The position numbers were made by a program, and so were the translations under genes. Below, piece by piece: positions 40,591 to 57,492 of a stretch of 64,000 bases of DNA (position 1 is its first letter; the number at the start of each line of letters is the position of its first letter). The DNA lies in assembly GCA_965263355.1 (NCBI GenBank), contig CBDHHL010000049.1, forward strand, positions 64,001-128,000. Direction: 5' to 3'. This DNA comes from Leptolyngbyaceae cyanobacterium. Lineage in GTDB: Bacteria; Cyanobacteriota; Cyanobacteriia; Phormidesmidales; Phormidesmidaceae. The notes beneath the pieces were generated by a model, which was not told where the DNA came from, did not search any database, and saw only the letters and a list, made by a program, of their open reading frames with translations.

Positions 40591-40634
40591 AAAAACAGGC
40601 AATCTCTCATCAGAGATTGCCTGTTTTGGTTTTT
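40591..40634. terminator. Likely bidirectional intrinsic terminator
   Basis: AAAACAGGCAATCTCT-catc-AGAGATTGCCTGTTTT perfect stem between convergent genes. Confidence 0.85.
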
Positions 40635-40681: not shown

Positions 40682-42121
40682 CTATGGCGTCGGCGCCCAA
40701 ATTCCCTGGAAACCCAAGGGCACTACCTGGAGTAAGGCTAACCGACACACGGGGTCGTGATCTAAATGAGCGGCGTCAAAAATCCATAGTTCACTGCGAT
40801 CGCAATCACCATTGAAAACCACCGTCAATATCCAGCCTGGGTCTGTTGTATTGGGCCTTGGCGCATAGATTGGCAGCGAGGGCCAACAGTTCTCCTCAAA
40901 GTGGGTTTCTTTAAGAGTGCCTGTTTGATGGTCAAACTGGGCGATCGCCCCAGGCAAATCGTCACCACTGATCGAATCAGGTCGTTGCACCGATAGATAC
41001 GTATATCGCCAGGGTCTACCCACATCAGTGGGGGCAGTTGTGGGAAACTCACAGCCGCGATCAAAAAGTTGCTGCTTTTCAATTACCTTGGCTGATTGTG
41101 GATCAATCCGAATCTGCCAAAGAGTACCTGGAGCTGTTGTCTGGGTTTGGCCAGTAAGCACCTCCTGTAAAAACTGATTAATATCAGGAAAGTTTGGATA
41201 ACATACAATATTGGTGAGAATTGAGCCATCGCTATCGTCACAACTATTACCAAATCGCCATTGAAACCAGGTATCAGCCGTACTCCGACTGACCACCGAA
41301 AAGGTCTGACGATCAATCACCAAAACCTGTGTTCCTTTGTTAGGCTTCCAACTCAGCGCTTGACTAAAGCTTTTTTGCTTTGTGAGAAATGGCAATACAT
41401 TCAACGAAACCGGAGGGATGAAAAATATCAGATAGTTCTGAGTCAGGGCAAAATCATGGATCAGGGGTTGTTGCTTGAGACTGTGGTTAGCCTTTTGTAG
41501 TAACTTTCCTGTGGAACTATGACGATATAGATGTAACTGCGCCTGGGGGCCATAGCTGATGCCAAAATTAAAGATTTCTCCCGTCTCTGGATCGATTTTA
41601 GGCAGAACAGCATAGGGCGCATCTGCAGATAACCCCAATGACCTTTCTAGACCAACCGTTTTGAGTGTGTGCCGATGGAGCGCGTGGGGAGCACCAATCC
41701 CCCAAAGTGCCAGCAACCTATCTGGCAGGACTAGCAGTCCAGAATTAGCACTATTCTTGACGGGTAAACTAACCTGTTGCCACAATGAGCCCGACGGTGT
41801 TCGATCATATCCACCAAAAAGAAAGCGTCCGGCCTTTTCTTCCGCCTGGTAACCATCCGTTTGAACATAGCGATAAACACCCGTAGCCCCTGCGTCGGCA
41901 AATCGCACCCCCAACACAGCACCATCGCCGTCGAACCAGTGTCGAATACGTTCGCCAGAGCGTTCCAGCAGGCCAGCCCCATTTTGATATAAGCTTCCTC
42001 TCAATTCCAGGGGAATCTCTCCAGAAATCACATCAAGGGAAGCTGACGAAAACTCGACACCAGAATAAGCCATGAGGGCTTCCCAGGGCCGATTCTTTTG
42101 CAATTGGGTCGAAGGGATCAC
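40682..42121 (-). CDS. Carotenoid cleavage oxygenase (RPE65-family) homolog with degenerate iron site
   Basis: GEIPLELRGSLYQNG, HWFDGDG, IHDF, CEFP, ELWIFDA; AAGGAG upstream of the GTG start. Expected AHPK, WHF and GFHG read VLPK, WRF and GFQG. Confidence 0.88.
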   Translation of the reverse strand: MIPSTQLQKNRPWEALMAYSGVEFSSASLDVISGEIPLELRGSLYQNGAGLLERSGERIRHWFDGDGAVLGVRFADAGATGVYRYVQTDGYQAEEKAGRFLFGGYDRTPSGSLWQQVSLPVKNSANSGLLVLPDRLLALWGIGAPHALHRHTLKTVGLERSLGLSADAPYAVLPKIDPETGEIFNFGISYGPQAQLHLYRHSSTGKLLQKANHSLKQQPLIHDFALTQNYLIFFIPPVSLNVLPFLTKQKSFSQALSWKPNKGTQVLVIDRQTFSVVSRSTADTWFQWRFGNSCDDSDGSILTNIVCYPNFPDINQFLQEVLTGQTQTTAPGTLWQIRIDPQSAKVIEKQQLFDRGCEFPTTAPTDVGRPWRYTYLSVQRPDSISGDDLPGAIAQFDHQTGTLKETHFEENCWPSLPIYAPRPNTTDPGWILTVVFNGDCDRSELWIFDAAHLDHDPVCRLALLQVVPLGFQGIWAPTP

Positions 42122-43323
42122 GAAACAGGTCTCCTTATAAATAAATAAATAAATTAATTAATCAATCAATCAACTGGATATTCCCTTTTCAAACGTCCAA
42201 CTCATTCAAGGGGCACTTTAAGCCCTGAATCACCTCAGGTCGAAAATTGAGCCTTCGCCAAATGTTCAGAATAAGCAGCTGGGGATCTGTTTTAAGAGGG
42301 GTACCTTGTTCACTCAATATACAACCAAGAATTCATGACAAACAAGCTAAATTGCAATCACTCCAAACAGTATTTTATAAAAATTTGATATGGAGTAGAT
42401 CCCTACAAGAAAATTGTTTTGAAGGTAATATTTTTGTATGCTACATAACAAAAATATTACAGGTGCTTGTACAATTAAGAGTAAGAATAAGTAGGAATAA
42501 GTAGGAAGAAAAATTAGTTTTGGACTTTAAAGAAAATAGTATGTTAATAAAAGTCAATGCCCTGGAAAGCCTTTTTGGCTAATGAATTAGCTCATATGCT
42601 CATATTTATATTTTAGTTTTATGTGCATCTCTCCTAACTTATCTATTTAATTAAACCAATTTCGATAATTGACTGCACACACTTCAAAACTAATTTTTGT
42701 CAAGTTTTCTAGATGGTTTTAAGTTTTATCTAACAAAGTTCTATGCTAAGCTTCTTACTATTAATTACAAAAGACACTTGAAGGCGTTTTTTGACCATGG
42801 TAAATATTTAAATATGCCTAGCCGGGGAAATGAGTATAGGTTTTATTTGTTGAATTAGTGTTTTCCTAGCTTGGGGTCCATGAGTCTTTGATAAAAGAAA
42901 TTTTATCGCTGAAATAATGTATTTAACATTGTTTGTTGAGGATTAACTATATTTCGACTGTTTTTTATGTTTTTCGCTGATTTCATAAATAAGGAATTTG
43001 ACGTCCATCCAAAGTGCCTAATCTATTCATGCTTTAGTTTTAGGACTTGAATTAGAACTATTTCGGTTACAAAAGTAACCTTATGGGTCAGTTTTTGATA
43101 AACAGCATACACATAATTAGGAAGAAATTGATGAGCGGTATCTCCATCCAAAATTGAGACTTGATTCAAAGGCAACATTCTGTTTGCGATCTCTTCAAGT
43201 AAATTACTTTGAGGTGTTTTTGAAATCCTCCTACTGAAGCCGCTGTTGATTCCATAGGTTTTCTCACTGAGAGCACCTATGCCTATGGGTAATGCACTAA
43301 ACATTTTTTAATGGGGATAATTC

Positions 43324-46300
43324 TTGATGATTCATTCACCTGAAGGGCAATCAGTTTTAACTAATGATGCCCCTGCGATCGCAATTGTTGGCATGGGTTG
43401 TTATTATCCGGGTGCTAGTGATTTACGCACCCTGTGGGAAAATATTTTGTCTAAGCGACAACAGTTTCGTCGGTCCCTCGACAGCCGGTTGCCTATCGCA
43501 GAGTACTACGATCCAGATCCTGCTACCCCTGACAAAACCTATGGCGATCGGGCGGCAGTGATAGACGGATTTGCATTTGATTGGGTGAAACGGCGAATCC
43601 CAAAGATATCCTTTGAATCTACCGATGTGGTGCATTGGTTGGCCCTAGAAACAGCCCTAAAAGCAATTGAAGATGTTGGCTACACTCGAAAAACTGTTCC
43701 CACTGAACGCACTGGCTTTATTCTGGGGAACACCCTGACGGGAGAACAAACACGTTCCACTACAGTGCGTTTACGTTGGCCGTTTGTCAGGCGGGCTTTG
43801 CAGGCCGCTGCTGCTGCCAAGGGCATGACTGAGGCCACCATAGACGAGTTGGTCTCTTTTATGGAAGGTGTGTATAAATCTGCATTTACCCCCATTACCG
43901 AAGATTCTTTGGCAGGAGGCCTTTCCAATACGATTGCCGGACGAGTTTGCAATTTCTTTGATTTTAAGGGGGGAGGCTACACTGTCGATGGGGCCTGTTC
44001 ATCATCCCTGATTGCCATTGCCACCGCCGCCAATGCTCTGGTCAGTGGTGATCTAGACATGGCCCTGGCTGGAGGGGTCGATATTAGTCTCGACACCTTT
44101 GAACTCATTGGGTTTGCCAAGGTAGGGGCGTTAACAGCCCAAGATATGACGGTTTATGATCGGACCGCCAGTGGATTTATCCCAGGTGAAGGCTGTGGCT
44201 GTGTGGTCATGAAACGTCTGGAAGATGCCCGGCGGGATGGGGATTATGTCTATGCCGTTTTAAATGGCTGGGCCATTTCTTCGGATGGTAAGGGAGGGAT
44301 TACGGCACCGTCCAAGGTGGGACAGTCCAATGCCCTCCAGTGGGCCTACAATCGGGCGGGCTATAGTAGCCATCAACTCGACTTTATTGAAGGTCATGGG
44401 ACCGGCACACCTGTAGGTGACCGCACCGAAATTGAGGGCATCGCCTTAACATTAGCTGCTGATGGTAAGTTGTCTCCCCGCCAGGTAGGGTTGACATCTT
44501 TTAAATCTCTGGTGGGACATACCAAGGCGGCAGCGGGTGTGGGCGGATTTATCAAGACTGTTATAGCGGTCAATCAGCGTGTTTTGCCACCCACCTGTGG
44601 CTGTAAAGAGCCCAACCCTATCTTTGATACGGTGGCCCAAGCCGTTTACCCCATTCTGCAGGGAGAAGTGCGCAGCTCAGATGACACCCTGACAGCAGGA
44701 ATCTCGGCTATGGGGTTTGGTGGCATTAACTGCCATGCCACTATTACCTCCGGGGATACTCCTCGCGATCGCTTAAAGCCCACCCTGCCTGAACGCGCCC
44801 TGATGGTGTCCCATCAGGAAACAGAATTATTTATTTTTAGCGCTGGTACTATCCCTGAGCTGTTGTCACAGGTAAGCGCTGTAGCTAAGGATGCTAGGGA
44901 TATTAGTCTAGCGGAAATGGTGGATTTGGCGGCTCATCTTGCTAAGCAGATAACCCCTCAACAACCTATCAGGGCGGCTGTGATTGCCAATTCTCCTAAG
45001 ACGTTGGTGCAACGGCTGGCCCAATTACAAGATTTAGCCCAGGACCGTCCCTGTGGTCCGGGAACAGTCTTGACAGCCCACCAGGATGGTTTGCCCCAGG
45101 CGGTGTGGCTAAGTCATTCGGCCCGACGAGATCGCGTTGCCTTTCTCTTCCCAGGGCAGGGGTCACAACAGCTGAATATGGCCAGGGTTTTGGTGGAACG
45201 CCATGGCTGGGCTCAAGAGCTACTTCAGCAAACGGATCAATGGTTGGCGGAGATTGACTGTGAGCCCATTAGTACCTACATGTTCCGCTCGACTGATCGG
45301 GCGGCCAATACAGACGAATTAGGGAACTGGATGAAGTCCTTGACCCGAGCTGATATTGCCCCAGCGGCCATCTGTTTTGCGTCATTGTTATGGCACCAAT
45401 ATTTGACCCGATTGGGGATCACCCCCGTTGCGGTGGGGGGCCATAGCTTGGGAGAACTGTCGGCGTTCTATGCGGCGGGTGCCTACGATGCCAAAACCCT
45501 GATTCAGTTTGCAGCAGTGCGCGGTAAAGCGATGCTCTCACCTCAGGGACAAGCGGGCTCGATGGTGAGTTTGGGGTGCGATCTCACCACAGCAGAAAAT
45601 CTTTTGAAACAAATCTCAGGCTATGCCGTTGTCGCCAACATCAACCATCCCCAACAAACCGTAATATCGGGCCATGCCGAAAGTATCAAGCAAGTGCTCC
45701 TAGCAGCAGAACGAGACGTGTTATATGCCCGTCAGCTAGCCGTTGCCAATGCATTCCACTCAGCTCTGGTGGAAGAGGCAGCAGCCCAGGTAAAAGAAAA
45801 GGCACCCATTCCGACAGAACTAACGTCAATTAACATGCCCATTATCTCCGCTATGACAGGTCAGCCTGTCAATGTCGGACTCAAATTGCCTGATTACTTT
45901 GCCCAACAAATCACATCCCAGGTCGACTTTATTTCATTGATCAACACCATCAACCCCCTGTGTGATCTGATGGTCGAAGTGGGAACCGGAAAAGTATTAT
46001 CCAAATTGGCGCAAACCAATTTAGATGGACAACCTGACCGATGCTTTGCAGTGGAAGCAAAGGTGGGAGAAGCCCTGAGTTTGAATACGTTTCTAGGTAA
46101 CTTTTTTGTTCAAGGGGGTGCGATTAAATGGGACATAGTCTATGAAAATCGTATGGTGCGCCCTTACATTTCCCCGTCAGACCGGGTATTTATCGGCAAT
46201 CCCTGCGAAAATCCACTCCAGGTTCCAGAAACCAAACCATTTACCACTGCTCCCTATTCGGGGGCTGTTAACGGCAATACCATGCCTCAAAATGCCTATC

Positions 46301-46434
46301 AACTCTCTGATGATGAGTTAGTTAATGTGCTTTCAGATTACTTTACTCGCCGTGGAGACTTTCTGGCCGAAATTATCCAGGCAGATATGCAGTTTGTTCC
46401 CCTTTCACTAACAGTTAAGCAATATCATGAATAA
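43324..46434 (+). CDS. Enediyne-type (PksE-like) iterative PKS, N-terminal KS-AT part
   Basis: PksE-characteristic GNTLTGE..R....RLRWPFVRR and EDSLAGGLSNTIAGRVCN.FD..GGGYTVDGACSSSL; EGHGTGT; GHTKAAAG; AT GHSLG/NAFHS. The true start may be the ATG at 43327. Confidence 0.9.
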   Translation: MMIHSPEGQSVLTNDAPAIAIVGMGCYYPGASDLRTLWENILSKRQQFRRSLDSRLPIAEYYDPDPATPDKTYGDRAAVIDGFAFDWVKRRIPKISFESTDVVHWLALETALKAIEDVGYTRKTVPTERTGFILGNTLTGEQTRSTTVRLRWPFVRRALQAAAAAKGMTEATIDELVSFMEGVYKSAFTPITEDSLAGGLSNTIAGRVCNFFDFKGGGYTVDGACSSSLIAIATAANALVSGDLDMALAGGVDISLDTFELIGFAKVGALTAQDMTVYDRTASGFIPGEGCGCVVMKRLEDARRDGDYVYAVLNGWAISSDGKGGITAPSKVGQSNALQWAYNRAGYSSHQLDFIEGHGTGTPVGDRTEIEGIALTLAADGKLSPRQVGLTSFKSLVGHTKAAAGVGGFIKTVIAVNQRVLPPTCGCKEPNPIFDTVAQAVYPILQGEVRSSDDTLTAGISAMGFGGINCHATITSGDTPRDRLKPTLPERALMVSHQETELFIFSAGTIPELLSQVSAVAKDARDISLAEMVDLAAHLAKQITPQQPIRAAVIANSPKTLVQRLAQLQDLAQDRPCGPGTVLTAHQDGLPQAVWLSHSARRDRVAFLFPGQGSQQLNMARVLVERHGWAQELLQQTDQWLAEIDCEPISTYMFRSTDRAANTDELGNWMKSLTRADIAPAAICFASLLWHQYLTRLGITPVAVGGHSLGELSAFYAAGAYDAKTLIQFAAVRGKAMLSPQGQAGSMVSLGCDLTTAENLLKQISGYAVVANINHPQQTVISGHAESIKQVLLAAERDVLYARQLAVANAFHSALVEEAAAQVKEKAPIPTELTSINMPIISAMTGQPVNVGLKLPDYFAQQITSQVDFISLINTINPLCDLMVEVGTGKVLSKLAQTNLDGQPDRCFAVEAKVGEALSLNTFLGNFFVQGGAIKWDIVYENRMVRPYISPSDRVFIGNPCENPLQVPETKPFTTAPYSGAVNGNTMPQNAYQLSDDELVNVLSDYFTRRGDFLAEIIQADMQFVPLSLTVKQYHE

Positions 46435-49400
46435 TATCGATTCTGATCAAGAGATGCTGCAATTGCTCTCCCAATATTTTGCGACGAGGGGTAATTTTTT
46501 AGCCCAGGTGATTCGTGCTGATATGCGCACATTACCTGGGCATCAGTTGGCCCAGACCCATAGTGTGAATGGGAGCAATGGCTATAACAACAGCCATAAC
46601 GGCAATGGCTATAACCATCAATTCAACGGTTTATCGACCAATGGTGCGGTCAACAACGGTGCGGTCAACAACGGTGCGGCCAATAACGGTGTACCTCATG
46701 TTCAGGTCGTTACTCCCGTTGCCCCCTCTGTGGTACCTGAAGTAGTACCGAGCCAGACGACGACCCACGACCAGGTGGTAGGTACGTTAGTGAACCTGAT
46801 TGTTGAGAAAACTGGATATCCTCAAGAAAGTATTACATTAGACTCCCGGCTGCTGGATGACCTAAATTTAGATTCCATTAAAGCCGGGGAAGTAGTCGCA
46901 ACAGCAGCCAAGCAATTTGGCGTAACCGGGGACTTAGATCCAACGGCCCTAGCCAATGTCACCCTAGCAGAAGTAGCCCAGGCTATTTGCGACACCCTGC
47001 CCGACGCAGGCCCATTACCAGAGACATCTATCGGTAACAACAACTCTGCCCTGGTGCCCTCGGTTCCCGAGACGAAAAATGTCTCCCAAATGCTGCTGAA
47101 CTTGGTGGAAGAAAGCACTGGCTTTCCCAAATCATCCTTGGCGATGGACATGCGGTTGTTGGATGATTTAAACCTAGATTCCATTAAGGCAGCTGAGCTA
47201 GTGGGACGAGCCGCCAAACAATTGGGCATTGATGGTCAGCTAGACCCCTCCACCCTGGCCAATGCCACCTTAACCGACGTGGCGACTACCCTGGAGAATG
47301 CCGCCACCATGACGGTGCCTGCGCAAGCAGTGAATCCAGCCCTTAAGCCCGCTAAACCGACTGCGATCGCCTTGAGTAAATGGGTGAGAAACTTTGCCGT
47401 TGACTATATAGAAGCGGCCCTGCCCGAACGCACCCCTGAGACCTGGTCTAACGCCAAGGTGAGATTGGTGGCCGATACCTCAGACAGTCCCGTGGTCGCT
47501 GCCCTAGCTGCTCAAATCACCTCCCTGGGTGGAGAGATTGTTCACTCCACATTCACCGAGATTCTATCGGCAGCGGCGGAAACCGGCTATAGCCATATTA
47601 TTGCCGTTTTACCGCAGCCTGCCGAGGCCGCAGAATTATCGTCTCTGCCCCTAGCCGAAATGACCGTGCGGCTAAAGGGCATCACCACCCTGGCCGATGC
47701 CGCTAAGACAGCTTGTGTGGCCTACGTCCAGTTTGGCGGCGGCCAGTTTGGCACAGACTCAGCCCTGGCACCCGAATCCTGTTGTGCCGCCGCCTTTGCC
47801 CGCAGTCTGCATCTGGAGCGTCCCTCTTTGCGAGTTCGGGTGGTAGACCTGGCGTCTGCCCTGGTTCCAGAACAAAGTGCTGAGCTGGTAATCTCAGAGC
47901 TCTCAGGTGAAGAGACTATTGTCACAGCGGGCTACGATGCTGAACAAGTGCGTCGGGTTCCCCAGTCGCGACTGCACCAACCTGCCACCTACACCCCCCG
48001 TGAGCAAAGCTGGTCTAATACCGATGTAATTCTGGTGACCGGTGGTGCTAAGGGAATTACGGCGGAATGTGCCCTGGCCATTGCTGAATCGACAGGGGCG
48101 AAAATGGCCTTGGTGGGTCGCTCGGCAGCGCCTGCCCCCGGCAGCCAGAACGAGATTGCTAAAACGTTGGCTCGATATGGCCAGCAGGATCTGAAGGCTG
48201 AGTATTATTCCTGTGACATTGCCAATCCTGAGGCAGTGGTCACCTTGGTTGAGACTATCACTAAAGAGCTTGGCTCGGTAACTGGCGTTATCCATGGGGC
48301 TGGCTTAAATACCCCCCGTCGGGTAGAACAGGTGAGTTTAGAGGAGGCCCAAAAGGAAGCGGGTCCAAAATTAATCGGAGCGCAAAATCTTCTTCAGGCC
48401 CTCGCTGAGCATCCGCCCAAACTGTTCCTGGCCTTTACCTCCATCATTGGTATCACTGGCATGCCGGGCAACAGCTGGTATGGCTTTGCTAATGAATCTC
48501 TGGCGCTGTTGCTGCGCCGCTTTAATCATCTGCATCCAGAAACTCAGGTGGTCTCCCTGGCCTACAGCGTCTGGGATGAAGTGGGTATGGGGGCTCGCAT
48601 GGGCAGTGTGAAGAACCTGGAACGCATGGGCATTGGGGCCATATCGCCCGAGGAAGGGATTGAGCGCTGTGTCAGACTCTTCCATAATGATCCAGGTGTG
48701 CAGCAGGTGGCCATAGCTGCCCGTCTTGGTGGTTTAGATACCTGGATTCCCATCCCGCAGATTCCCATCGATCAGCTGCGATTTATGGAACGGGTCACCT
48801 ATCTTGAGCCCGGTGTAGAACTCACCGTGCGCACCCATCTCACCCAGGAGAGAGATCTCTATGTCAAGGATCATATCTGGCGAGGGTCCTACCTGTTTCC
48901 CACCGTCTTTGGTTTAGAAGCCATGGCCCAGGCGGCAGCAGTGATATCGGCAGACCCTGAGCCCACCATTGTGCGACTGGAAAATATCTCCCTGCGGCGT
49001 CCCATTGTGGTTAGTCCAGAGACTGGTGTTGAGATTGAAATCCACGCCGAGATGACCGAACTCAACAGCGCTGGTGAGAGGCAAATTAAAATCGGCATTC
49101 GTACTGAACAAACCGGCTTTAACACCGACCACTTCTCTGCCACCCTGGTATTGGGGGAGCGTCAACCCAGTCAAACCCTGAAGCATCAACTTGGTGCGCC
49201 ATTGGCCATTGAGCCCAAACGGGATCTCTACGGCAGTTTACTCTTCCAAGGGGAGCTGTTCCAGCAGATGGATAGTATCTACTCCCTCAGTCGAGAGCAA
49301 AGTCTGCTAGAATCCCATGCCCAAGCCTCAGCCGACTTAACGGAAACCGGCTTCCCCGTTGGCCAGGGCAGTGACTTCCTGCTAGGTGACCCCTATTTAC

Positions 49401-51484
49401 GGGATGTGTTGTTGCAATGTATGCAGCTGAATATTCCTCAAGATATCTGTCTGCCTGTTGAGATTGAACGTATAGACCTGTTTGCAAATCCGCTAACCGG
49501 AGCAGGGCGACGGATCATCACCGCAATTTTGAATGAAAAAATCGACAAAGAATACATTTGTGAGGTAGTTGCCACCGATGAGGTAGGCACCATCATTGAG
49601 CACTTGCACGGCTACCGATTACGGGTCCTAGAAGAACATCCCGAAAACCCCAGCGCAGTAGAATTGGCATCTCCGGAACGGCGGGACCAACAAACCTTAC
49701 AACAAACTCTGACAGTTGCCTGTAGTCAGGTGGGTGTGCAAACACCCACTGTCGCCCTGGGCTACGCCCCTGGACTGGGCGCACAAGCTAAGAAAAAGCG
49801 TCGGCAGATAGAAAAGGGACTTGTTGATCGGGTTATTAAGCGCACCCGTAATCTTGCACCAGACTCTGCGGCTCTCACATTTACTATCCGCACCCACAGC
49901 TCGGGTAAACCCTATCTGAGTGGACAGGCGTTTCAGGATCTGGAGGCTCCTCCAGAGCTTTCTCTGTCCCACGACGATCACTACTGTCTCTGTACGGTGG
50001 CTGATACTCCCCAGGGGTGTGATATCGAATCGGTTAACCATCGCTCTGAGGAAGATTGGGTAGCGCTGTTGAGCAATGCCCGCACCGACATTGTTAATCA
50101 GCTAGTGGCCTCGGGGGACGAGCGAGATGTGGCAGGTACTCGGGTGTGGTCAGCCTTAGAGGCGCTGCATAAGGCTTTTAATGGTATTGATTTCACCCTA
50201 TACCTTCAACAGCGTCAGGACAGCACCGTGTTATTGCATGCCCAAACAGACCAGGGAGATAACTATTATGTTTTGACCCTGCCAGTGCAGCTGACCCGCT
50301 ATCCACAGCGCATGGTGGCGATGGTAGTGAACCTGTCCCCTGAGACATCCACCGTGGGTTCGCCTGTAGGTTCGCCTGGTTCACTCCTGGTAGACGAACA
50401 GCCTGATCCCTATGGCATTATCCGTCCTGGAGAACATCGCACCCGCATCACGGAAGATGGTCCCCAAAATCAACCGGTGTACGAAAAACGGTTCCCAGTT
50501 ACCTTTAAGGAGGGGTGTAGCATAAGCCGTAAAGTAACGGTGTCACAGTATATCAGCTGGGTGGGCAAGATTCGAGAACTGCCATTGAGAAGCATGGCAG
50601 AACAGATGGTGCCCGATTTCCTAAGCGGTGAGTTTGGCATGGTGACTAATAGCGTTACCCTGCGAGTCTTAGGAGAGGCCACTACCTATGACACGATCCA
50701 GGCTCGGTGTTGGTTAGGCAATTTAGTCAACTCGTCCTTCTCCACATATATGGAATTCTGCAAAGTGTTACCCGATGACACCTTAGAACGGGTAGCCATG
50801 GCAGAAGTCCGGGCAACTTGGGTGCGGTTAATCAGCTATGGTATTCCGGCCCCTGAGCCCATGCCAAATTATCTGCAGGCCTATATGGATCAGTTCTGTG
50901 CCAAATTACCTGCCACCATCGATCTAAAAGAATCTCCCACCGATACCTTACAGGTGTTACCCGAAAGTCTATCGGCGATGCAACCAGGGGGTATCCAGTA
51001 TCAGTCTTCTGCAATCCCCCATGGTGATTTAGTGTTTACTGAGGTTTTCCAAACCACCTTAGAAGAGTCCAACCTGGTGGGGAATGTCTACTACGGCAAT
51101 TACTTCATCTGGCAAGGACGGGTGATCGATCTCTTCCTTTACTCCTTGGCCCCCAACTACTTTAGAGTGTCAACAGCGCAGGGAGAAGCGGTCTCACTTT
51201 ACAGCCATATGAACTTTATGCGAGAGGCCATGCCCTTTGATAAAATCCGCGTCAATCTCTATCTCCATAGCGTGACTGACTGTGGAGCAGTATTTAACTT
51301 CGAGTTTTTCCGAGAAATGCCCGGCGACAAGCAAGAAAAACTGCACACAGGACAGCAGGAAGTAATTTGGGCCAACCGTCAAGCCGACGGGTCCCCCATC
51401 CCTGCCTCCTGGCCTGAGGCAATTCGTAAAGCCCTAATTCAACAACAATCCACCTCAAACACCATGGGTTACGCCATGGCGTAG
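46427..51484 (+). CDS. PksE-like iterative PKS, C-terminal part: ACP-ACP-KR-DH-PPTase-hotdog TE x2
   Basis: LLDDLNLDSIK twice; KR VTGGAKGITAECA and WYGFANE; DH DHIWRGSYLFP; PPTase GKP, SLSH, GCDIE, WSALEALHKA; TE EESNLVGNVYYGNYFIWQGR preceded by a diverged copy (YISWVGKIRE). Confidence 0.9.
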   Translation: MNNIDSDQEMLQLLSQYFATRGNFLAQVIRADMRTLPGHQLAQTHSVNGSNGYNNSHNGNGYNHQFNGLSTNGAVNNGAVNNGAANNGVPHVQVVTPVAPSVVPEVVPSQTTTHDQVVGTLVNLIVEKTGYPQESITLDSRLLDDLNLDSIKAGEVVATAAKQFGVTGDLDPTALANVTLAEVAQAICDTLPDAGPLPETSIGNNNSALVPSVPETKNVSQMLLNLVEESTGFPKSSLAMDMRLLDDLNLDSIKAAELVGRAAKQLGIDGQLDPSTLANATLTDVATTLENAATMTVPAQAVNPALKPAKPTAIALSKWVRNFAVDYIEAALPERTPETWSNAKVRLVADTSDSPVVAALAAQITSLGGEIVHSTFTEILSAAAETGYSHIIAVLPQPAEAAELSSLPLAEMTVRLKGITTLADAAKTACVAYVQFGGGQFGTDSALAPESCCAAAFARSLHLERPSLRVRVVDLASALVPEQSAELVISELSGEETIVTAGYDAEQVRRVPQSRLHQPATYTPREQSWSNTDVILVTGGAKGITAECALAIAESTGAKMALVGRSAAPAPGSQNEIAKTLARYGQQDLKAEYYSCDIANPEAVVTLVETITKELGSVTGVIHGAGLNTPRRVEQVSLEEAQKEAGPKLIGAQNLLQALAEHPPKLFLAFTSIIGITGMPGNSWYGFANESLALLLRRFNHLHPETQVVSLAYSVWDEVGMGARMGSVKNLERMGIGAISPEEGIERCVRLFHNDPGVQQVAIAARLGGLDTWIPIPQIPIDQLRFMERVTYLEPGVELTVRTHLTQERDLYVKDHIWRGSYLFPTVFGLEAMAQAAAVISADPEPTIVRLENISLRRPIVVSPETGVEIEIHAEMTELNSAGERQIKIGIRTEQTGFNTDHFSATLVLGERQPSQTLKHQLGAPLAIEPKRDLYGSLLFQGELFQQMDSIYSLSREQSLLESHAQASADLTETGFPVGQGSDFLLGDPYLRDVLLQCMQLNIPQDICLPVEIERIDLFANPLTGAGRRIITAILNEKIDKEYICEVVATDEVGTIIEHLHGYRLRVLEEHPENPSAVELASPERRDQQTLQQTLTVACSQVGVQTPTVALGYAPGLGAQAKKKRRQIEKGLVDRVIKRTRNLAPDSAALTFTIRTHSSGKPYLSGQAFQDLEAPPELSLSHDDHYCLCTVADTPQGCDIESVNHRSEEDWVALLSNARTDIVNQLVASGDERDVAGTRVWSALEALHKAFNGIDFTLYLQQRQDSTVLLHAQTDQGDNYYVLTLPVQLTRYPQRMVAMVVNLSPETSTVGSPVGSPGSLLVDEQPDPYGIIRPGEHRTRITEDGPQNQPVYEKRFPVTFKEGCSISRKVTVSQYISWVGKIRELPLRSMAEQMVPDFLSGEFGMVTNSVTLRVLGEATTYDTIQARCWLGNLVNSSFSTYMEFCKVLPDDTLERVAMAEVRATWVRLISYGIPAPEPMPNYLQAYMDQFCAKLPATIDLKESPTDTLQVLPESLSAMQPGGIQYQSSAIPHGDLVFTEVFQTTLEESNLVGNVYYGNYFIWQGRVIDLFLYSLAPNYFRVSTAQGEAVSLYSHMNFMREAMPFDKIRVNLYLHSVTDCGAVFNFEFFREMPGDKQEKLHTGQQEVIWANRQADGSPIPASWPEAIRKALIQQQSTSNTMGYAMA

Positions 51485-51873: not shown

Positions 51874-53700
51874 ATGACCACTATGCAATGTACTGAAACC
51901 TACGATGTTGTGATTATGGGGGCAGGATTTGCGGGTCTTTGTCAGGCTCGGCATCTCATGCTCAAAATTCCGAACATTAAGATTGCCCTGGTTGATCCGC
52001 GTTCTCCAGAAAGAAGTCCTGAGAAAGATTTGAAGATTGGAGAATCAACGGTGGAAGTTGCGGCGTTGTTTCTCGCTAAGGAACTGGGGCTATACGAATA
52101 TTTGGTAGAAAAACAAGTGCCAAAATTTGGCCTAAATTTTCACTGGCCGAAGACGCCTAAAAACACCCAGAAAATCGACGATTACTATCATATTTGGACC
52201 AATCGCCAGCCAGAAATTGCATCTTTCCAGGTGGATCGGTCTGAATTTGAACAGGACCTGCTCAAGATGAATATTGAGCAGGGTGCCCACTTTATTAATG
52301 GTCGGGTGGTCGATATCGATTTACCCCAGGGAGATGGCATTAATACCGTTAAAGTTCGGGCAAATGGTGAAATCCGAGACCTGAAAGCCAAGCATGTGAT
52401 TGATGCTGCTGGACGTAAGTTTTTGATTGGTAAAAAGACAGATAATCTGTTGTTTGGTCCCGAAAACCTCTACGGATTAAACAATGGCGCAGCCTGGGTC
52501 AGGGTAAAAAATGTTGACCGTGATCTTTTCCACGATGGCTACGATCCGGAGAATACTTCTGTCAGTCATTACTATGCCACCAATCACTACTTTGGTCATG
52601 GCCATTGGCTATGGATGATCCCCATCGACACAGAGAACCAACAACTGTCCATTGGGGTAATGCACCACCATGATGTGCTGGCGGCAAACCAGGTTAACAA
52701 GCAAGAGAAGTTCCTGGCGTTTTTGAAGGCCAATCATACGGTTTTGTACGATCTTATTAAAAGTGGTGAAACCGTTGACTTTCACTATTGGCCCAGGGCT
52801 GCCCACAAATCAAAGACAATGTTCTCCGAAGATAACTGGTATGTGATCGGGGATGCGGCCTGTATCTTTGATGCCTTTTATTCCCAGGGGTCCACGTTAA
52901 CCACCTTTGCCATTGAAGGGGCCACGGAGATTATTCGCTCAAAGCTGGCCCAGGAACCCGATGCTGAGCAAAAACGCGTTGCCTACAACAGCTTTACTCT
53001 GGGATATAACGACTTAGTCAACAGTCTTTATCGCGATCATGACAAACAGCTAGGTGATGCCAGCATTATGAGCTGGCGCATTTACTTTGAATACATTTGG
53101 TGGTTCGGTGTGGTGGTGCCGCTGTATATCGGCAAGTGGCATTTGGACATCGACGTTTGCAACAGAACCGTGAAGATCTTTAACGGTCTATCGAAGCTAT
53201 GGTTCGATGTGTACGATCAGTTTAATGAACTGATTGAGAAACAAGTCAATCTTGGGTTTTTGGACTGTTATCGGGCCGATCAATTAATTTTTGGCTATAC
53301 CACGGCTAAGCATTTTGACGATTTCACTCAGAATGCTAAGTATGAGCCCTTCCGAGTGAATGTGTTTGGCAGTTTGAAGAATGCCTGTTTTTATGCGATC
53401 GCATGGTTAATTAAGTTCAAATGGAAAGGCTTTGGCTTAGCAGGATTGCTCAGCCCTAAAACCATTGGCAATATTGCTTGGGTCTCATCGATTATGGGGC
53501 TAGCCGCTATGGGGGAAATTGTTTTCAAGATTAAAACCATGGGCACCCCTGACAATAGCGACATTGAGCAAATGCGCAAAGAGTTCAAGAGCTATCAGTA
53601 TATCCCTGAACTCCAACCCTCGCTCTTTGAAAAACGTAAGCCTGAAGAGTTATCTGCAGGGGCTGAAAACATCTCTTCAGCAGAACTGGTTAGGAATTAA
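51874..53700 (+). CDS. Flavin-dependent halogenase-like oxidoreductase 1
   Basis: GAGFAG, KIGEST, conserved Lys in PKFGLNF, WLWMIP (WxWxIP), GDAACIFDAFYSQG. Confidence 0.85.
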   Translation: MTTMQCTETYDVVIMGAGFAGLCQARHLMLKIPNIKIALVDPRSPERSPEKDLKIGESTVEVAALFLAKELGLYEYLVEKQVPKFGLNFHWPKTPKNTQKIDDYYHIWTNRQPEIASFQVDRSEFEQDLLKMNIEQGAHFINGRVVDIDLPQGDGINTVKVRANGEIRDLKAKHVIDAAGRKFLIGKKTDNLLFGPENLYGLNNGAAWVRVKNVDRDLFHDGYDPENTSVSHYYATNHYFGHGHWLWMIPIDTENQQLSIGVMHHHDVLAANQVNKQEKFLAFLKANHTVLYDLIKSGETVDFHYWPRAAHKSKTMFSEDNWYVIGDAACIFDAFYSQGSTLTTFAIEGATEIIRSKLAQEPDAEQKRVAYNSFTLGYNDLVNSLYRDHDKQLGDASIMSWRIYFEYIWWFGVVVPLYIGKWHLDIDVCNRTVKIFNGLSKLWFDVYDQFNELIEKQVNLGFLDCYRADQLIFGYTTAKHFDDFTQNAKYEPFRVNVFGSLKNACFYAIAWLIKFKWKGFGLAGLLSPKTIGNIAWVSSIMGLAAMGEIVFKIKTMGTPDNSDIEQMRKEFKSYQYIPELQPSLFEKRKPEELSAGAENISSAELVRN

Positions 53701-53824: not shown

Positions 53825-55666
53825 ATGACCAGCACGTTAATGCGAGAGACAACATATCACGAGACTAAAAACCATAACTACGACGTGGTGATCATAGGGG
53901 CAGGGTTTGCTGGTCTTTGTCAGGCTCGTCACCTGATGCTCAATATTCCTAATCTCAAGATTGCCCTCATCGATCCTCGCCCCATTGAGCGAGGTGATAA
54001 GGACCTCAAAATTGGTGAATCTACCATTGAAATTGCCGCCTTGTTTTTGAGTAAGGAACTGGGTCTGTATGAATATCTGGTGGAAAACCATGTTCCCAAA
54101 ATCGGCTTGAATTTCCACTGGCCAAAGGAGGGCGACAAGACCGAAAAACTTGAGGACTACTATCACATCTGGTCTAACCGTCAGGTATCGATTCCAGCGT
54201 TTCAAATGAATCGAGCTAAGTTAGAGCGTGATTTACTCAAGATGAATCAAGAGATGGGGGTAACATTCTATAACGGTCGCGCCAAAGATGTTGATCTTAC
54301 CCCTGGCGATGCAACTAAGCAGGTCACGGTGAAACTCAAGGGTGAAGAGGTTACCCTCAACTGTAAGCATGTGATCGATGCAGCCGGTCGTAACTTTATC
54401 ATTGGCCGTAAGAAAGATAACGTACTGTCTGGCCCAGAGAATCTCTTAGGTCTGAATAATGGCTCTGCTTGGATGCGGGTTAAAGGCGTAGATCGCTCTA
54501 TTTTTCATGACGGGTACGACCCCAACAATGCCTCCACCAGTCACTATTACGCCACCAATCACTACTTTGGCCATGGTCACTGGCTATGGATGATTCCCAC
54601 CGATAGCAAGACCATGGAAGTGTCCATCGGCATGATGCACCACCACGATCAGCTGCCCGCTGAAGAGGTTAGGACCCAGGAGAAGTTTACTAACTTCTTA
54701 AAGCACAACCACACGATGCTTTATAGGCTGATCGAAAGTGGCGAAGCCATTGACTTTAACTATCGTCCTAAGGTGGCCCACAAGAGTAAGGAGATGTTCT
54801 CCAAAGATAACTGGTATGTGATTGGAGACGCGGCCTATATCTTTGATGCGTTCTACTCCTACGGCACGTCCACGGTAGCGCTGGCGATTGAAAGTGTCAC
54901 CGAAATTATCCGCTCCAAGGTAGCTCAAGAACCCGAAACAGAAGCAAAGCGAGATGCCTTTAACAAGTTCAACCTGATCTTTGCCCTCACCGTTAACTAT
55001 CTCTATCGCGATCACGGTAAGCAGTTGGGCCATGCCAGTGTGATGAGCTGGCGCATCTATTGGGAATATATGTGGTGGTTCGGCATGATGGTGCCCATGT
55101 ATGTCGGTAAGTGGCATATTGACCAAACCTTTATTGACATTTTCTTAGGCATCAACAAGAAAATTGACGGCATGTTCTCCCATATCAACAAGCAGTTCAA
55201 TGAACTGGTGGAACGGGATGCCAACCTGGGGTTAATGGATTGTTATCGGGCAGACCAGCTGATCTGGGGCTACTATACTCCCAAACAGTTTGATAATTAT
55301 CTGGCCAATACAAAGCTGGAACCCCTTCACTGTAATGTCTTTGCCTGCATCAAAAACACCTGTTTCTTTGTGGCAGTGTGGTACGCCAAGTTCCTTTGGA
55401 AGGGCTTTGGTCTCAAGGGCGTGCTGAACCCTAAAAACCTTTACTATCTGATGGTGCTGATGGGCTTTACCATTCAGTCGGCGATTGGTGAGATGGTCTA
55501 CAAGTTTAAGACTAGAGGTCTTTCCAACAATAGTCAGATTACTCAGATGCGTGAGGAGTTTAAGTCTTATCAATACAAGCCTGAACTCCGCTCCTGGATG
55601 ACAGATGTGGCTGCCAAAACTCAGACGATGGCAGACAAAGAATCTGCAGAATACGCGTTCAAATAA
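53825..55666 (+). CDS. Flavin-dependent halogenase-like oxidoreductase 2
   Basis: GAGFAG, KIGEST, PKIGLNF, WLWMIP, GDAAYIFDAFYSYG; clear paralog of its neighbours. Confidence 0.85.
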   Translation: MTSTLMRETTYHETKNHNYDVVIIGAGFAGLCQARHLMLNIPNLKIALIDPRPIERGDKDLKIGESTIEIAALFLSKELGLYEYLVENHVPKIGLNFHWPKEGDKTEKLEDYYHIWSNRQVSIPAFQMNRAKLERDLLKMNQEMGVTFYNGRAKDVDLTPGDATKQVTVKLKGEEVTLNCKHVIDAAGRNFIIGRKKDNVLSGPENLLGLNNGSAWMRVKGVDRSIFHDGYDPNNASTSHYYATNHYFGHGHWLWMIPTDSKTMEVSIGMMHHHDQLPAEEVRTQEKFTNFLKHNHTMLYRLIESGEAIDFNYRPKVAHKSKEMFSKDNWYVIGDAAYIFDAFYSYGTSTVALAIESVTEIIRSKVAQEPETEAKRDAFNKFNLIFALTVNYLYRDHGKQLGHASVMSWRIYWEYMWWFGMMVPMYVGKWHIDQTFIDIFLGINKKIDGMFSHINKQFNELVERDANLGLMDCYRADQLIWGYYTPKQFDNYLANTKLEPLHCNVFACIKNTCFFVAVWYAKFLWKGFGLKGVLNPKNLYYLMVLMGFTIQSAIGEMVYKFKTRGLSNNSQITQMREEFKSYQYKPELRSWMTDVAAKTQTMADKESAEYAFK

Positions 55667-55707: not shown

Positions 55708-57492
55708 ATGAATACAACACCAGTACTTGAGAAACCCTCTACTAAACCGGGCCAACATGATTACGATGTAGTCATCATGGGCGCAGGCTTTGCCGGAATT
55801 TGTCAGGCTAGACATCTGGCCCTCAATATTCCTAACATCAAAGTTGCTCTCGTTGACTTTCGCCCCGAGGAGAGAGACGTCAAGGATATGAAAATTGGCG
55901 AATCCATGGTGGAAGTTGCCGCTCTTTTTGTTTGTAAAGAGCTGGGTCTGCATGAGTACATGATCGAAAATCACACCCCTAAGGCAGGGCTTAATTTCCA
56001 CTGGCCCAAGGAACCAGAAGATACGGACCAGCTGGATGATTATTACCATGTTTGGTCCAATCGTCAGACTGCGATCGCATCTTTCCATATGAACCGGGCC
56101 AAATTTGAGCGCGATGTGCTGGCCATGACCCGCGAGATGGGTGTAGACTTTTACAACGGTCGCGTCATAGATGTGGAGTTGCCCGCAGGCGACAGTCTTA
56201 ACACCGTTAAAGTGAAGCTTAACGGTGAGTTGATGGCACTTACTGCCAAGCATGTAGTGGATGCTGCGGGTCGACAATGCATGATAGGCAAGAAAAAAGA
56301 CAATGTGATTAGCGATCCTGAAAATTTATATGGCCTCAAAACAGGATCTGCTTGGGTTCGGGTCAAGAATATTGACCGTAAGCTGTTTGACGAAGGATAT
56401 AATCCTGACCGTGCCACTAGCAGCAGTTACTATGCCACCAATCACTTCTTTGGTCAGGGGCACTGGCTGTGGATGATTCCCACCGATCGCGAATCGATGG
56501 AACTTTCCATTGGCATCATCCATCACCATGATGTGATTCCATCTAATTCAATTAATTCCAAAGAAAAGTTTTACGCGTTTCTAAAGTCCAATCACAAGAT
56601 TCTTTCCAATTTAGTAGAATCCGGTGAAGACATTGATTTCCGTTATCGTCGTAGCATTGCCTACAAGAGTAAGGAAATGTTCTCTCCCGATAACTGGTAT
56701 GTACTAGGGGATGCTGCTTACATCTTTGATGCTTTTTACTCCTATGGCACCACCACCGTTGCCTTTGCAGTAGAAGGTGTCACCGAAATTATCCGGGCCA
56801 AGCTAGCGGGCGAATCTGACGCTGAGACCAAGCGTGATGCCTACAATAAATTTAATCTCGCCTACGCCGAAAATGTAAACCACCTGATCCGCTACCATGA
56901 CAAGCAACTGGGGCATGCCAGTGTGATGAGCTGGCGGGTTTACTTTGAGTATATGTGGTGGTTTGGTGTCCATGTACCGATGTATGTGGGTAAGTGGCAC
57001 CTCAATCTTACCTTTGTCAACAAGTTCCTGAAGCTGTTGCCAGCCAATATGAAGGGACTGTTTGTTGATGTGTATGGACAGTTTAATCAGATTGTGGATC
57101 GCGGTGGCAATATTGGCTTAATGGATGCTTATCGGGCCGATCAGCTCATTGGTGATTATAGTCCCCTGAATCACTTCGATCATTTTTTGGAGAATTCAAA
57201 GCTTGAACCATTACGCTGTAATGTCTTTGCGGGCATGAAGCATGCCTACTTCTTTATTGCCATTTGGTATTTGAAGTTCCAATGGATGGGCTTTGGTCTG
57301 CTAGGGGTGCTACATCCCCGCCATGTATACCATTTCTTCCGTCTGTTGAGTCTGTCATTCCAGGCAATTATTGGTGAGAAAATCTATCAGTCCAAGACCA
57401 AGCACTTGCCTGAAAATACAGATACCGAGAAAATGCGCGAGGAATTTAAACAGTATACGTATCAACCAGTCTGGCAGTCTGGTAAGGGATAA
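55708..57492 (+). CDS. Flavin-dependent halogenase-like oxidoreductase 3
   Basis: GAGFAG, KIGESM, PKAGLNF, WLWMIP, GDAAYIFDAFYSYG. Confidence 0.85.
   Translation: MNTTPVLEKPSTKPGQHDYDVVIMGAGFAGICQARHLALNIPNIKVALVDFRPEERDVKDMKIGESMVEVAALFVCKELGLHEYMIENHTPKAGLNFHWPKEPEDTDQLDDYYHVWSNRQTAIASFHMNRAKFERDVLAMTREMGVDFYNGRVIDVELPAGDSLNTVKVKLNGELMALTAKHVVDAAGRQCMIGKKKDNVISDPENLYGLKTGSAWVRVKNIDRKLFDEGYNPDRATSSSYYATNHFFGQGHWLWMIPTDRESMELSIGIIHHHDVIPSNSINSKEKFYAFLKSNHKILSNLVESGEDIDFRYRRSIAYKSKEMFSPDNWYVLGDAAYIFDAFYSYGTTTVAFAVEGVTEIIRAKLAGESDAETKRDAYNKFNLAYAENVNHLIRYHDKQLGHASVMSWRVYFEYMWWFGVHVPMYVGKWHLNLTFVNKFLKLLPANMKGLFVDVYGQFNQIVDRGGNIGLMDAYRADQLIGDYSPLNHFDHFLENSKLEPLRCNVFAGMKHAYFFIAIWYLKFQWMGFGLLGVLHPRHVYHFFRLLSLSFQAIIGEKIYQSKTKHLPENTDTEKMREEFKQYTYQPVWQSGKG

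Follow-up and report, generated by a model that had tools for sequence, protein, structure and literature searches.

A carotenoid-oxygenase-family protein with an eroded iron centre, linked to PksE-like polyketide synthase/halogenase clusters of cyanobacteria

The four iron-binding histidines of the carotenoid-oxygenase superfamily have been called absolutely conserved (PMC8866865), and the pairing of Glu with His is present in the solved CCDs (PMC13734108, PMC8866865). Replacement of a conserved His or Glu abolishes the isomerohydrolase activity of RPE65, and an 80-fold decrease of kcat/KM by the E150Q change in ACO is cited second-hand in the same source (PMC12710743). Isomerase chemistry has previously been adopted by the CCD fold in RPE65, with iron (PMC12710743). 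The tunnel of ACO includes F69, F113, W149, F236, F303, and F371 (PMC13734108), and Thr136 is its iron-occluding residue (PMC12051055). Clusters that combine a PksE-like polyketide synthase (PKS) with halogenases are already in print as an orphan type (PMC2442094, PMC4247773).

Here, we investigated a CCO-like gene in a stretch of 64,000 nucleotides of cyanobacterial DNA, hereafter the window, where it lies next to a PksE-like PKS/halogenase cluster. Its product is a cluster-linked, conserved pseudoenzyme-like variant of a known family that is apparently undescribed; a His-deficient CCO, or a CCO of this kind in such a cluster, was not found in a search of the full-text literature outside which most subscription papers and supplements fell.

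An oxygenase fold with a single iron histidine

The gene, its codons at the seven ligand sites of Synechocystis ACO, and its flanking signals are as follows:

40682..42121, minus strand: CCO/RPE65-family ORF, 479 aa, reading G-L-H-R-E-L-Q across the seven ligand positions of ACO
41699..41701, minus strand: G141 (GGG) at ACO Glu150, from the alignment to ACO and the codon read-out
41603..41605, minus strand: L173 (CTG) at ACO His183, a His lost only in the window protein and P0003
41456..41458, minus strand: H222 at ACO His238, the sole remaining iron His, invariant in 219/219 aligned near homologs
41255..41257, minus strand: R289 (CGA) at ACO His304, a replacement that characterises the clade (Arg in 40/41 tips, His in 1)
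41048..41050, minus strand: E358 at ACO Glu370, retained in 40/40 Arg-type proteins, the putative salt-bridge partner of R289
40874..40876, minus strand: L416 (CTG) at ACO Glu426, a Glu absent from 45/45 ligand-deficient clade members
40706..40708, minus strand: Q472 (CAG) at ACO His484, a site with 4 changes within the Arg clade
42131..42136, minus strand: AAGGAG ribosome-binding site, 9 nt upstream of the GTG
40592..40627, no strand assigned: perfect 16-bp hairpin, flanked on either side by A/T runs, that separates a convergent adhesin-like ORF from the CCO-like ORF
42122..43323, no strand assigned: divergent spacer, 1.2 kb, AT-rich (32% GC)

Alignment to ACO and the codon read-out leave the window protein with one of the four His and one of the three second-shell Glu of the iron centre (H222 and E358), so that it falls short of both hallmarks of the CCD family, i.e., four iron His (1/4) and three second-shell Glu/Asp (1/3). 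The ligand losses at L173, R289, Q472, G141, and L416 and the retention of H222 and E358 that the original prediction had described are all found, with every stated codon coordinate matching, as are the intact frame of 479 aa, which reads from a GTG start at 42121 to 40682 free of stops, and the ribosome-binding site. A sequencing error or frameshift was rejected as the source of the altered residues, since P0003, a protein 85% identical to that of the window, has the same seven.

Family membership is well supported. The Pfam RPE65 profile (PF03055) matches residues 24–477 with 386 bits against a cut-off of 27, no solved structure is closer in sequence than Synechocystis ACO (E about 3e-72), and the ESM Atlas output for the protein contains the RPE65 family only. 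An AlphaFold2 model built from a 26-row alignment (pLDDT 85.4, pTM 0.88) predicts a seven-bladed beta-propeller that Foldseek superimposes on ACO with a TM score of 0.86 at 32% identity. The NCBIfam equivalogs for CCOs (lignostilbene dioxygenase; 8'-apo-carotenoid 13,14-dioxygenase) stay below their curated cut-offs, with 140/800, 137/675, and 99/650 bits. Judged by its sequence, the window protein is a homolog of the CCD/RPE65 family, and we do not file it as a CCD enzyme. This corrects an annotation, as several proteins of its clade are named "all-trans-8'-apo-beta-carotenal 15,15'-oxygenase" by their sources.

As had been predicted, the residues of a polyene tunnel appear to be retained, together with those of the membrane patch. 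Six of eight ACO tunnel positions could be mapped, all of them apparently aromatic or aliphatic: F69, F113, W149, F236, F303, and F371 correspond to F63, Y105, W140, L220, W288, and F359 of the window protein. ACO Thr136, of which the T136A variant is named in the structure-search result, corresponds to Ser; this position holds Thr in 172/172 canonical proteins vs 10/40 of the Arg-type.

The 16-bp hairpin, 55 nt downstream of the gene, is likely a two-way terminator, a reading based on its stem length and place rather than on the number of sites, as the two terminator-like sites found vs 2.7 expected in shuffled sequences are not significant as a count. No convincing promoter was found in the spacer 42122..43323, where the promoter scan gave fewer sites than shuffled sequences.

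Stepwise ligand loss under relaxed purifying selection

The full E-H-H-H-E-E-H set is present in 172 of 200 near homologs. Among the 136 full-length sequences of the 150 returned representatives of 50%-identity clusters, 132 have four His, four have three, and none has fewer, and three of the four three-His representatives look truncated or frameshifted at the C-terminus. In a tree of 219 sequences, from which the seven ligand columns and that of Thr136 were removed, one clade unites 45 of 47 non-canonical proteins (support 0.977) with no fully liganded member inside; those outside it are P0020 (His304 to Leu) and P0027 (Glu426 to Asp). His304 to Arg without Glu426 is common to 19 of 120 listed proteins, which form one group inside the liganded cyanobacterial subfamily (SH-aLRT 100 in a quick tree). 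The Arg subclade comprises 41 tips, one of which, P0128, reads His again, either as a reversion or as a sequencing variant.

Within this clade, Glu426 was lost first, followed by His304 to Arg, then Glu150 to Gly and His484 to Gln (P0004, P0005, and their kin), and finally His183 to Leu in the window protein and P0003, with a single change each at His183 and Glu150 in the whole clade. Three His are still present in 26/40 Arg-type proteins, and WP_013334439.1 is a three-His member of the clade. On the sequence evidence, the window protein thus shows the greatest erosion within a small cyanobacterial clade that is characterised by His304 to Arg and the loss of Glu426. Other ligands were lost in the sister lineages P0040/P0042, P0149, and P0157, the last of which (S-N-H-Q-N-Q-A), sister to P0149, is a second case in which nearly the whole iron centre was lost, independently of the first. 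Single ligand changes occur also in otherwise ordinary CCOs, with Ala at the Glu426 column in L128 (G043) and Gln at His304 in P0292; either slips in the alignment or additional losses that arose independently may account for them.

The original prediction had taken the two substitutions behind two of the His changes as a sign that the iron centre was removed in a targeted manner. This does not hold: CTG and CGA are both two bases away from a His codon, the amino acid is altered by only one of the two steps, and the Arg codon is CGT in four other loci vs CGA in the window. The double base change therefore points to age and not to targeting, and the loss proceeded stepwise inside an older clade.

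Both genomes that allowed this check, G725 and G694, encode a fully liganded paralog alongside the deficient copy. A metagenome pattern scan gave 12 matches, three in CCO genes and nine unrelated. No Arg-type gene was recovered among the 80 loci of the related-locus search or with a shorter pattern in 401 genomes, where none of 13 matches fell in a CCO gene. Sets of 401, 2, 8, and 251 genomes, which overlap, were also searched with profiles (with as few as 4–6 candidates scored per genome in the large samples); none of the 24 loci checked was of the Arg-type, and a search with a clade profile gave no further Arg-type cluster among the 120 matches listed.

Selection on the clade is purifying, though relaxed. 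Pairwise dN/dS is 0.08–0.25 in all six measurable pairs among four related loci; the four of the ten pairs that compare the window with these loci give no ratio because dS is saturated. Between the window and P0003, dN/dS over residues 232–478 is about 0.10–0.16, a bracket, as only 28 of the 120 base changes are listed. These changes come from a contig of run X5 that equals P0003 at 21/21 checkable codons; over the same residues, 120 bases separate the contig from the window, and 34 residues separate P0003 from the window protein. Random pseudogene decay was rejected as the main cause of the losses, in line with the earlier claim, with dN/dS well below 1 in both comparisons (0.08–0.25; about 0.10–0.16).

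The differences between the window protein and P0003 affect 5/114 family-conserved vs 32/137 variable sites. The ratio of conserved to variable changes is 0.16–0.31 in Arg-type pairs vs 0.03–0.13 in liganded CCO pairs, which is looser, and the CCO-like gene is also less constrained than the adjacent halogenase (0.25 vs 0.12 for L081/L089). Of the 114 family-conserved residues, 20 are missing from the window protein vs 1–7 from each of the eight canonical proteins shown. This relaxation is uneven: against a column mean of 4.2 parsimony changes in the clade, W140, W288, E358, and H222 have none and Y105 has one, and the R289/E358 pair has 0–1, vs seven changes at Glu426, five at Thr136, and four at His484.

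Part of this record would fit a former tailoring oxygenase that is no longer catalytic and is undergoing slow decay or deletion, its sequence conserved only because an expressed protein is costly when misfolded. The ligand loss is stepwise and repeated, the constraint is relaxed, and a long branch (0.33) leads to the one-His pair formed by the window protein and P0003. However, the frames have remained full-length and open over a tree length of about 5.8 substitutions per site after His304 to Arg, with dN/dS of 0.08–0.25, which is hard to reconcile with a function-less gene, and the ribosome-binding site and terminator-like hairpin are intact. We consider a decaying gene unlikely.

Linkage to PksE-like synthase/halogenase clusters

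Across the divergent spacer, the window contains the following genes:

43324..46434, plus strand: PksE-like iterative PKS, first half (KS-AT), 58–77% identical to orthologs in L093, L108, L111, and L113
46427..51484, plus strand: PksE-like PKS, second half (2 ACP-KR-DH) with a C-terminal hot-dog thioesterase related to CalE7/DynE7
51874..53700, plus strand: flavin-dependent halogenase-like protein 1
53825..55666, plus strand: flavin-dependent halogenase-like protein 2
55708..57492, plus strand: flavin-dependent halogenase-like protein 3, with PltA as its closest solved relative (E 1.5e-20)
58033..60990, plus strand: secreted-type DUF4347/RTX-repeat protein

The PKS has the enediyne-type order KS-AT-ACP-KR-DH and a fused CalE7-type thioesterase (E 5e-15), split over two ORFs, and the second half (46427..51484) holds a putative PPTase-like stretch, recognised by motifs only. 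No warhead-forming accessory family (E3/E4/E5) and no DUF1702 were detected among the 16 window ORFs scanned. DUF1702, presumably the mark of one enediyne accessory gene (E3/E4/E5), is present in some related clusters. All three halogenase-like genes match the Trp_halogenase Pfam above its cut-off, with a visible FAD-binding motif, and they also show the KIGES lysine and the WxWxIP motif of flavin-dependent halogenases. Residues about 412–627 of the DUF4347/RTX protein match unnamed secreted-type proteins of four related clusters (L089, L093, L113, L114) at 33–42%, so the gene at 58033..60990 is probably a cluster member; two of these small unnamed proteins gave no Pfam or NCBIfam match. In another locus (L109:10688-18271), a fused PksE-like PKS of 2528 aa has one halogenase on each side, and the split seen in the window is therefore not universal. 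At the end of the window (61132-64000, minus strand, open at the window end), the C-terminal part of a putative AcrB-family transporter is fused in frame to a TPR region, which may be an unusual fusion or an assembly artefact.

Co-occurrence of His-deficient homologs with PksE-like clusters, as originally predicted, is borne out for the Arg-type. All five Arg-type loci with readable surroundings, the window included, are PksE-like PKS and halogenase clusters, a context that was read for five loci, whereas the clade comprises 19 clusters at 90% identity. PksE/halogenase orthologs are absent from the 80 other CCO loci, 47 of them at least 15 kb long, which include L033, itself the locus of a deficient sister protein. 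The CCO and PKS C-terminus trees agree (five taxa, unrooted). The CCO-like gene and genes of the cluster are both covered by contigs from runs X3 and X5, which are silent on synteny because none of the listed pieces bridges the two.

The predicted divergence from the polyene synthase is real in the window and unique to it among the five loci. In the four others (L081, L087, L089, and L093, the last on a plasmid of Gloeothece verrucosa PCC 7822), the gene shares its strand with the same PKS and with three or four orthologous halogenases, which it directly follows. Adjacency to the last halogenase in 4/4 other loci, together with a conserved surface and fold, might suggest that the propeller docks on a halogenase or the PKS and organises both at the membrane. 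Yet the gene is optional in clusters with near-identical halogenases and is transcribed apart from them in the window, and we regard such a scaffold as very unlikely.

The window also holds a separate hybrid cluster (199-36396) with two desaturases, two reducing PKS modules, a PKS-NRPS, an NRPS, a terminal PKS-TE, and an MFS transporter. The CCO-like gene lies between both clusters and is oriented away from the PksE-like side, as it might be if it served the upstream NRPS/PKS cluster or general carotenoid handling. Against this, the gene of the four other loci lies inside PksE/halogenase operons with no such NRPS orthologs adjoining, which makes service to anything but the PksE-like cluster exceedingly improbable.

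The association with the PKS thus stands for the Arg-type loci (5/5), and in the other direction it fails, as the gene is dispensable. The halogenase family occurs in 13 of 401 sampled cyanobacterial genomes, 11 of which have the PksE-like PKS, and the Arg-type gene is found in none of the 13 other halogenase-cluster regions, some of which end at contig borders. In nine of the 13 genomes, the best whole-genome CCO matches are ordinary four-His copies elsewhere. The cluster of G043, sister to that of the window and 69–83% identical, has no Arg-type gene; the gene is also lacking in G037 and G368/G192, and the PKS tree, which ignores G152, G294, and G286 (no homologous C-terminus) and leaves out G366, thus implies at least three gene losses. 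These losses would again suit a tailoring gene on its way out, although no CCO remnants were detected in clusters without the gene by protein searches, which find only intact genes and under-count pseudogenes.

Cleavage as a role for a CCO in these clusters is illustrated by another subfamily. Three PksE-like/halogenase clusters (L118:14696-19785, L119:3597-9899, L124:8688-10136) carry an unrelated CCO, 28% identical, in which the four His are complete; in L118 and L119 its neighbours include an aldehyde dehydrogenase and two DUF1702 genes. The gene set of L118 and L119 suggests, from sequence, that a polyene is cleaved to an aldehyde and acid. This intact CCO is an independent recruitment into the same cluster type, and its four His in three related clusters indicate that cleavage is a real step in some such pathways; it likewise fits the view of the window gene as a leftover of a cleavage role.

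In Plectonema radiosum NIES-515 (L033:1142-11182), the ligand-deficient CCO P0149 (E-H-H-H-A-K-G) follows a putative DarA-like gene, DarB, two desaturase-like genes, and DevBCA. The putative microcarbonin cluster has this layout as well. L089, L093, and 2/79 other related loci likewise contain a DevC homolog; the window has none.

Candidate functions and comparison with known systems

Iron-dependent cleavage by the window protein is very unlikely, a judgement that we hold with high confidence because one His is left and single His or Glu changes already cripple RPE65 and ACO. We instead propose, at about an even chance of being right, that the gene encodes an optional membrane-associated, iron-free binder of the predicted lipophilic product of the cluster, which is predicted to be a halogenated polyene. 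The PKS with its fused thioesterase would release a conjugated polyene, which the three halogenases would modify. Arg289 would pair with Glu358 at the former His304/iron site and close the propeller axis without metal, and the aromatic tunnel (F63, Y105, W140, L220, W288, F359) and a hydrophobic surface patch would draw the polyene from the membrane. The bound polyene could then be shielded from oxidation or from the producer, or be handed to tailoring enzymes or an exporter. If the binder only raises yield or tolerance, as we propose, sister clusters can lose the gene.

Binding is favoured because W140, W288, and Y105 of the tunnel are near-invariant while Glu426, Thr136, and His484 drift. 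Also in its favour are the ligand loss, the retained fold, selection, linkage, co-divergence with the PKS, the presence of P0149 in another lipophile cluster, and the liganded paralogs in G725 and G694. Counting against it are the absence from 13/13 other halogenase regions, the looser constraint, the 20/114 conserved residues lost, the three His in 26/40 Arg-type proteins (a pure binder needs none), the intact CCOs in three related clusters, and the lack of a DevC homolog in the window. Optional presence and relaxed constraint speak against an essential step and leave room for a gene in decay.

The near-invariance of H222, E358, and R289 while other ligands drift could also reflect an altered catalyst, in which the tunnel hosts polyene isomerisation, cyclisation, halide elimination, or cofactor-free oxidation by means of these three residues; the commoner three-His members may still hold metal. 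His183 and Glu150 changed only once each in the clade, the gene is placed like a tailoring gene after the halogenases in 4/4 other loci, and RPE65 sets a precedent for isomerase chemistry in this fold, though with iron (PMC12710743). However, no new His, Asp, Glu, or Cys is common to the window protein and its clade, the sole acidic gain (V434E in 12/19) is absent from the window protein, folding alone can account for the conservation of residues buried in the axis, and sister clusters with the same PKS and halogenases do without the gene. New chemistry of this kind therefore seems improbable to us.

A broader possibility, which we rate somewhat below even, is that a CCO paralog lineage was converted to iron-free carriers or metal-free catalysts in which an Arg-Glu pair replaces the iron, was taken up by at least two kinds of cluster unrelated to each other (PksE/halogenase and dialkylresorcinol), and marks the unexplained 'oxygenase' of such clusters. 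The clade offers a natural graded series of 4, 3, 2, and 1 His under purifying selection in a superfamily whose four iron His are treated as invariant, and hence a direct test of the CCD tunnel as a pure polyene-binding module or as a site of iron-free chemistry. A binding protein could also be used to pull down the product and would open a way into a cluster type that has been on record as an orphan since 2008 (PMC2442094). If the proposal is true, the carotenoid-oxygenase superfamily has a pseudoenzyme branch for reactive lipophilic natural products.

Compared with known systems, the cluster shares with enediyne PKS cassettes the PKS domain order and the CalE7/DynE7-type thioesterase, but in the window the PKS is split in two, the thioesterase is fused, and DUF1702 is missing among the 16 ORFs. 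The orphan cluster of Microcystis aeruginosa PCC 7806, compared by its description, has a PksE-like PKS and three halogenases like the window, whereas the word 'oxygenase' is absent from the main text of that paper (PMC2442094). The putative microcarbonin cluster of Microcystis PCC 9808 has DarA/DarB, two desaturases, DevBCA, and an unexplained 'oxygenase', as does L033, but it represents a dialkylresorcinol and not a PksE pathway (PMC6836626); no Microcystis-named match is among the 120 listed for P0149.

Among proteins, lancelet BCOLg has the CCD fold and an altered second shell (PMC13734108), and C. elegans BCMO-1/2 did not detectably cleave the tested substrates (PMC8866865); unlike the window protein, both are described with all four His and iron. 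ACO (PDB 2biw, 4ou9, 5kjb) is the closest solved relative by sequence and fold, and its tunnel positions map onto the window protein; it differs as an active Fe enzyme, not described as a cluster gene, with His183, His304, His484, Glu150, and Glu426, all of which are replaced here. Closest of all is the widespread liganded cyanobacterial CCO subfamily (P0013, P0021, L001-L080), 43–55% identical, which has the full set of four His and three acidic residues and lies in housekeeping neighbourhoods, and which is the parent subfamily that encloses the deficient clade.
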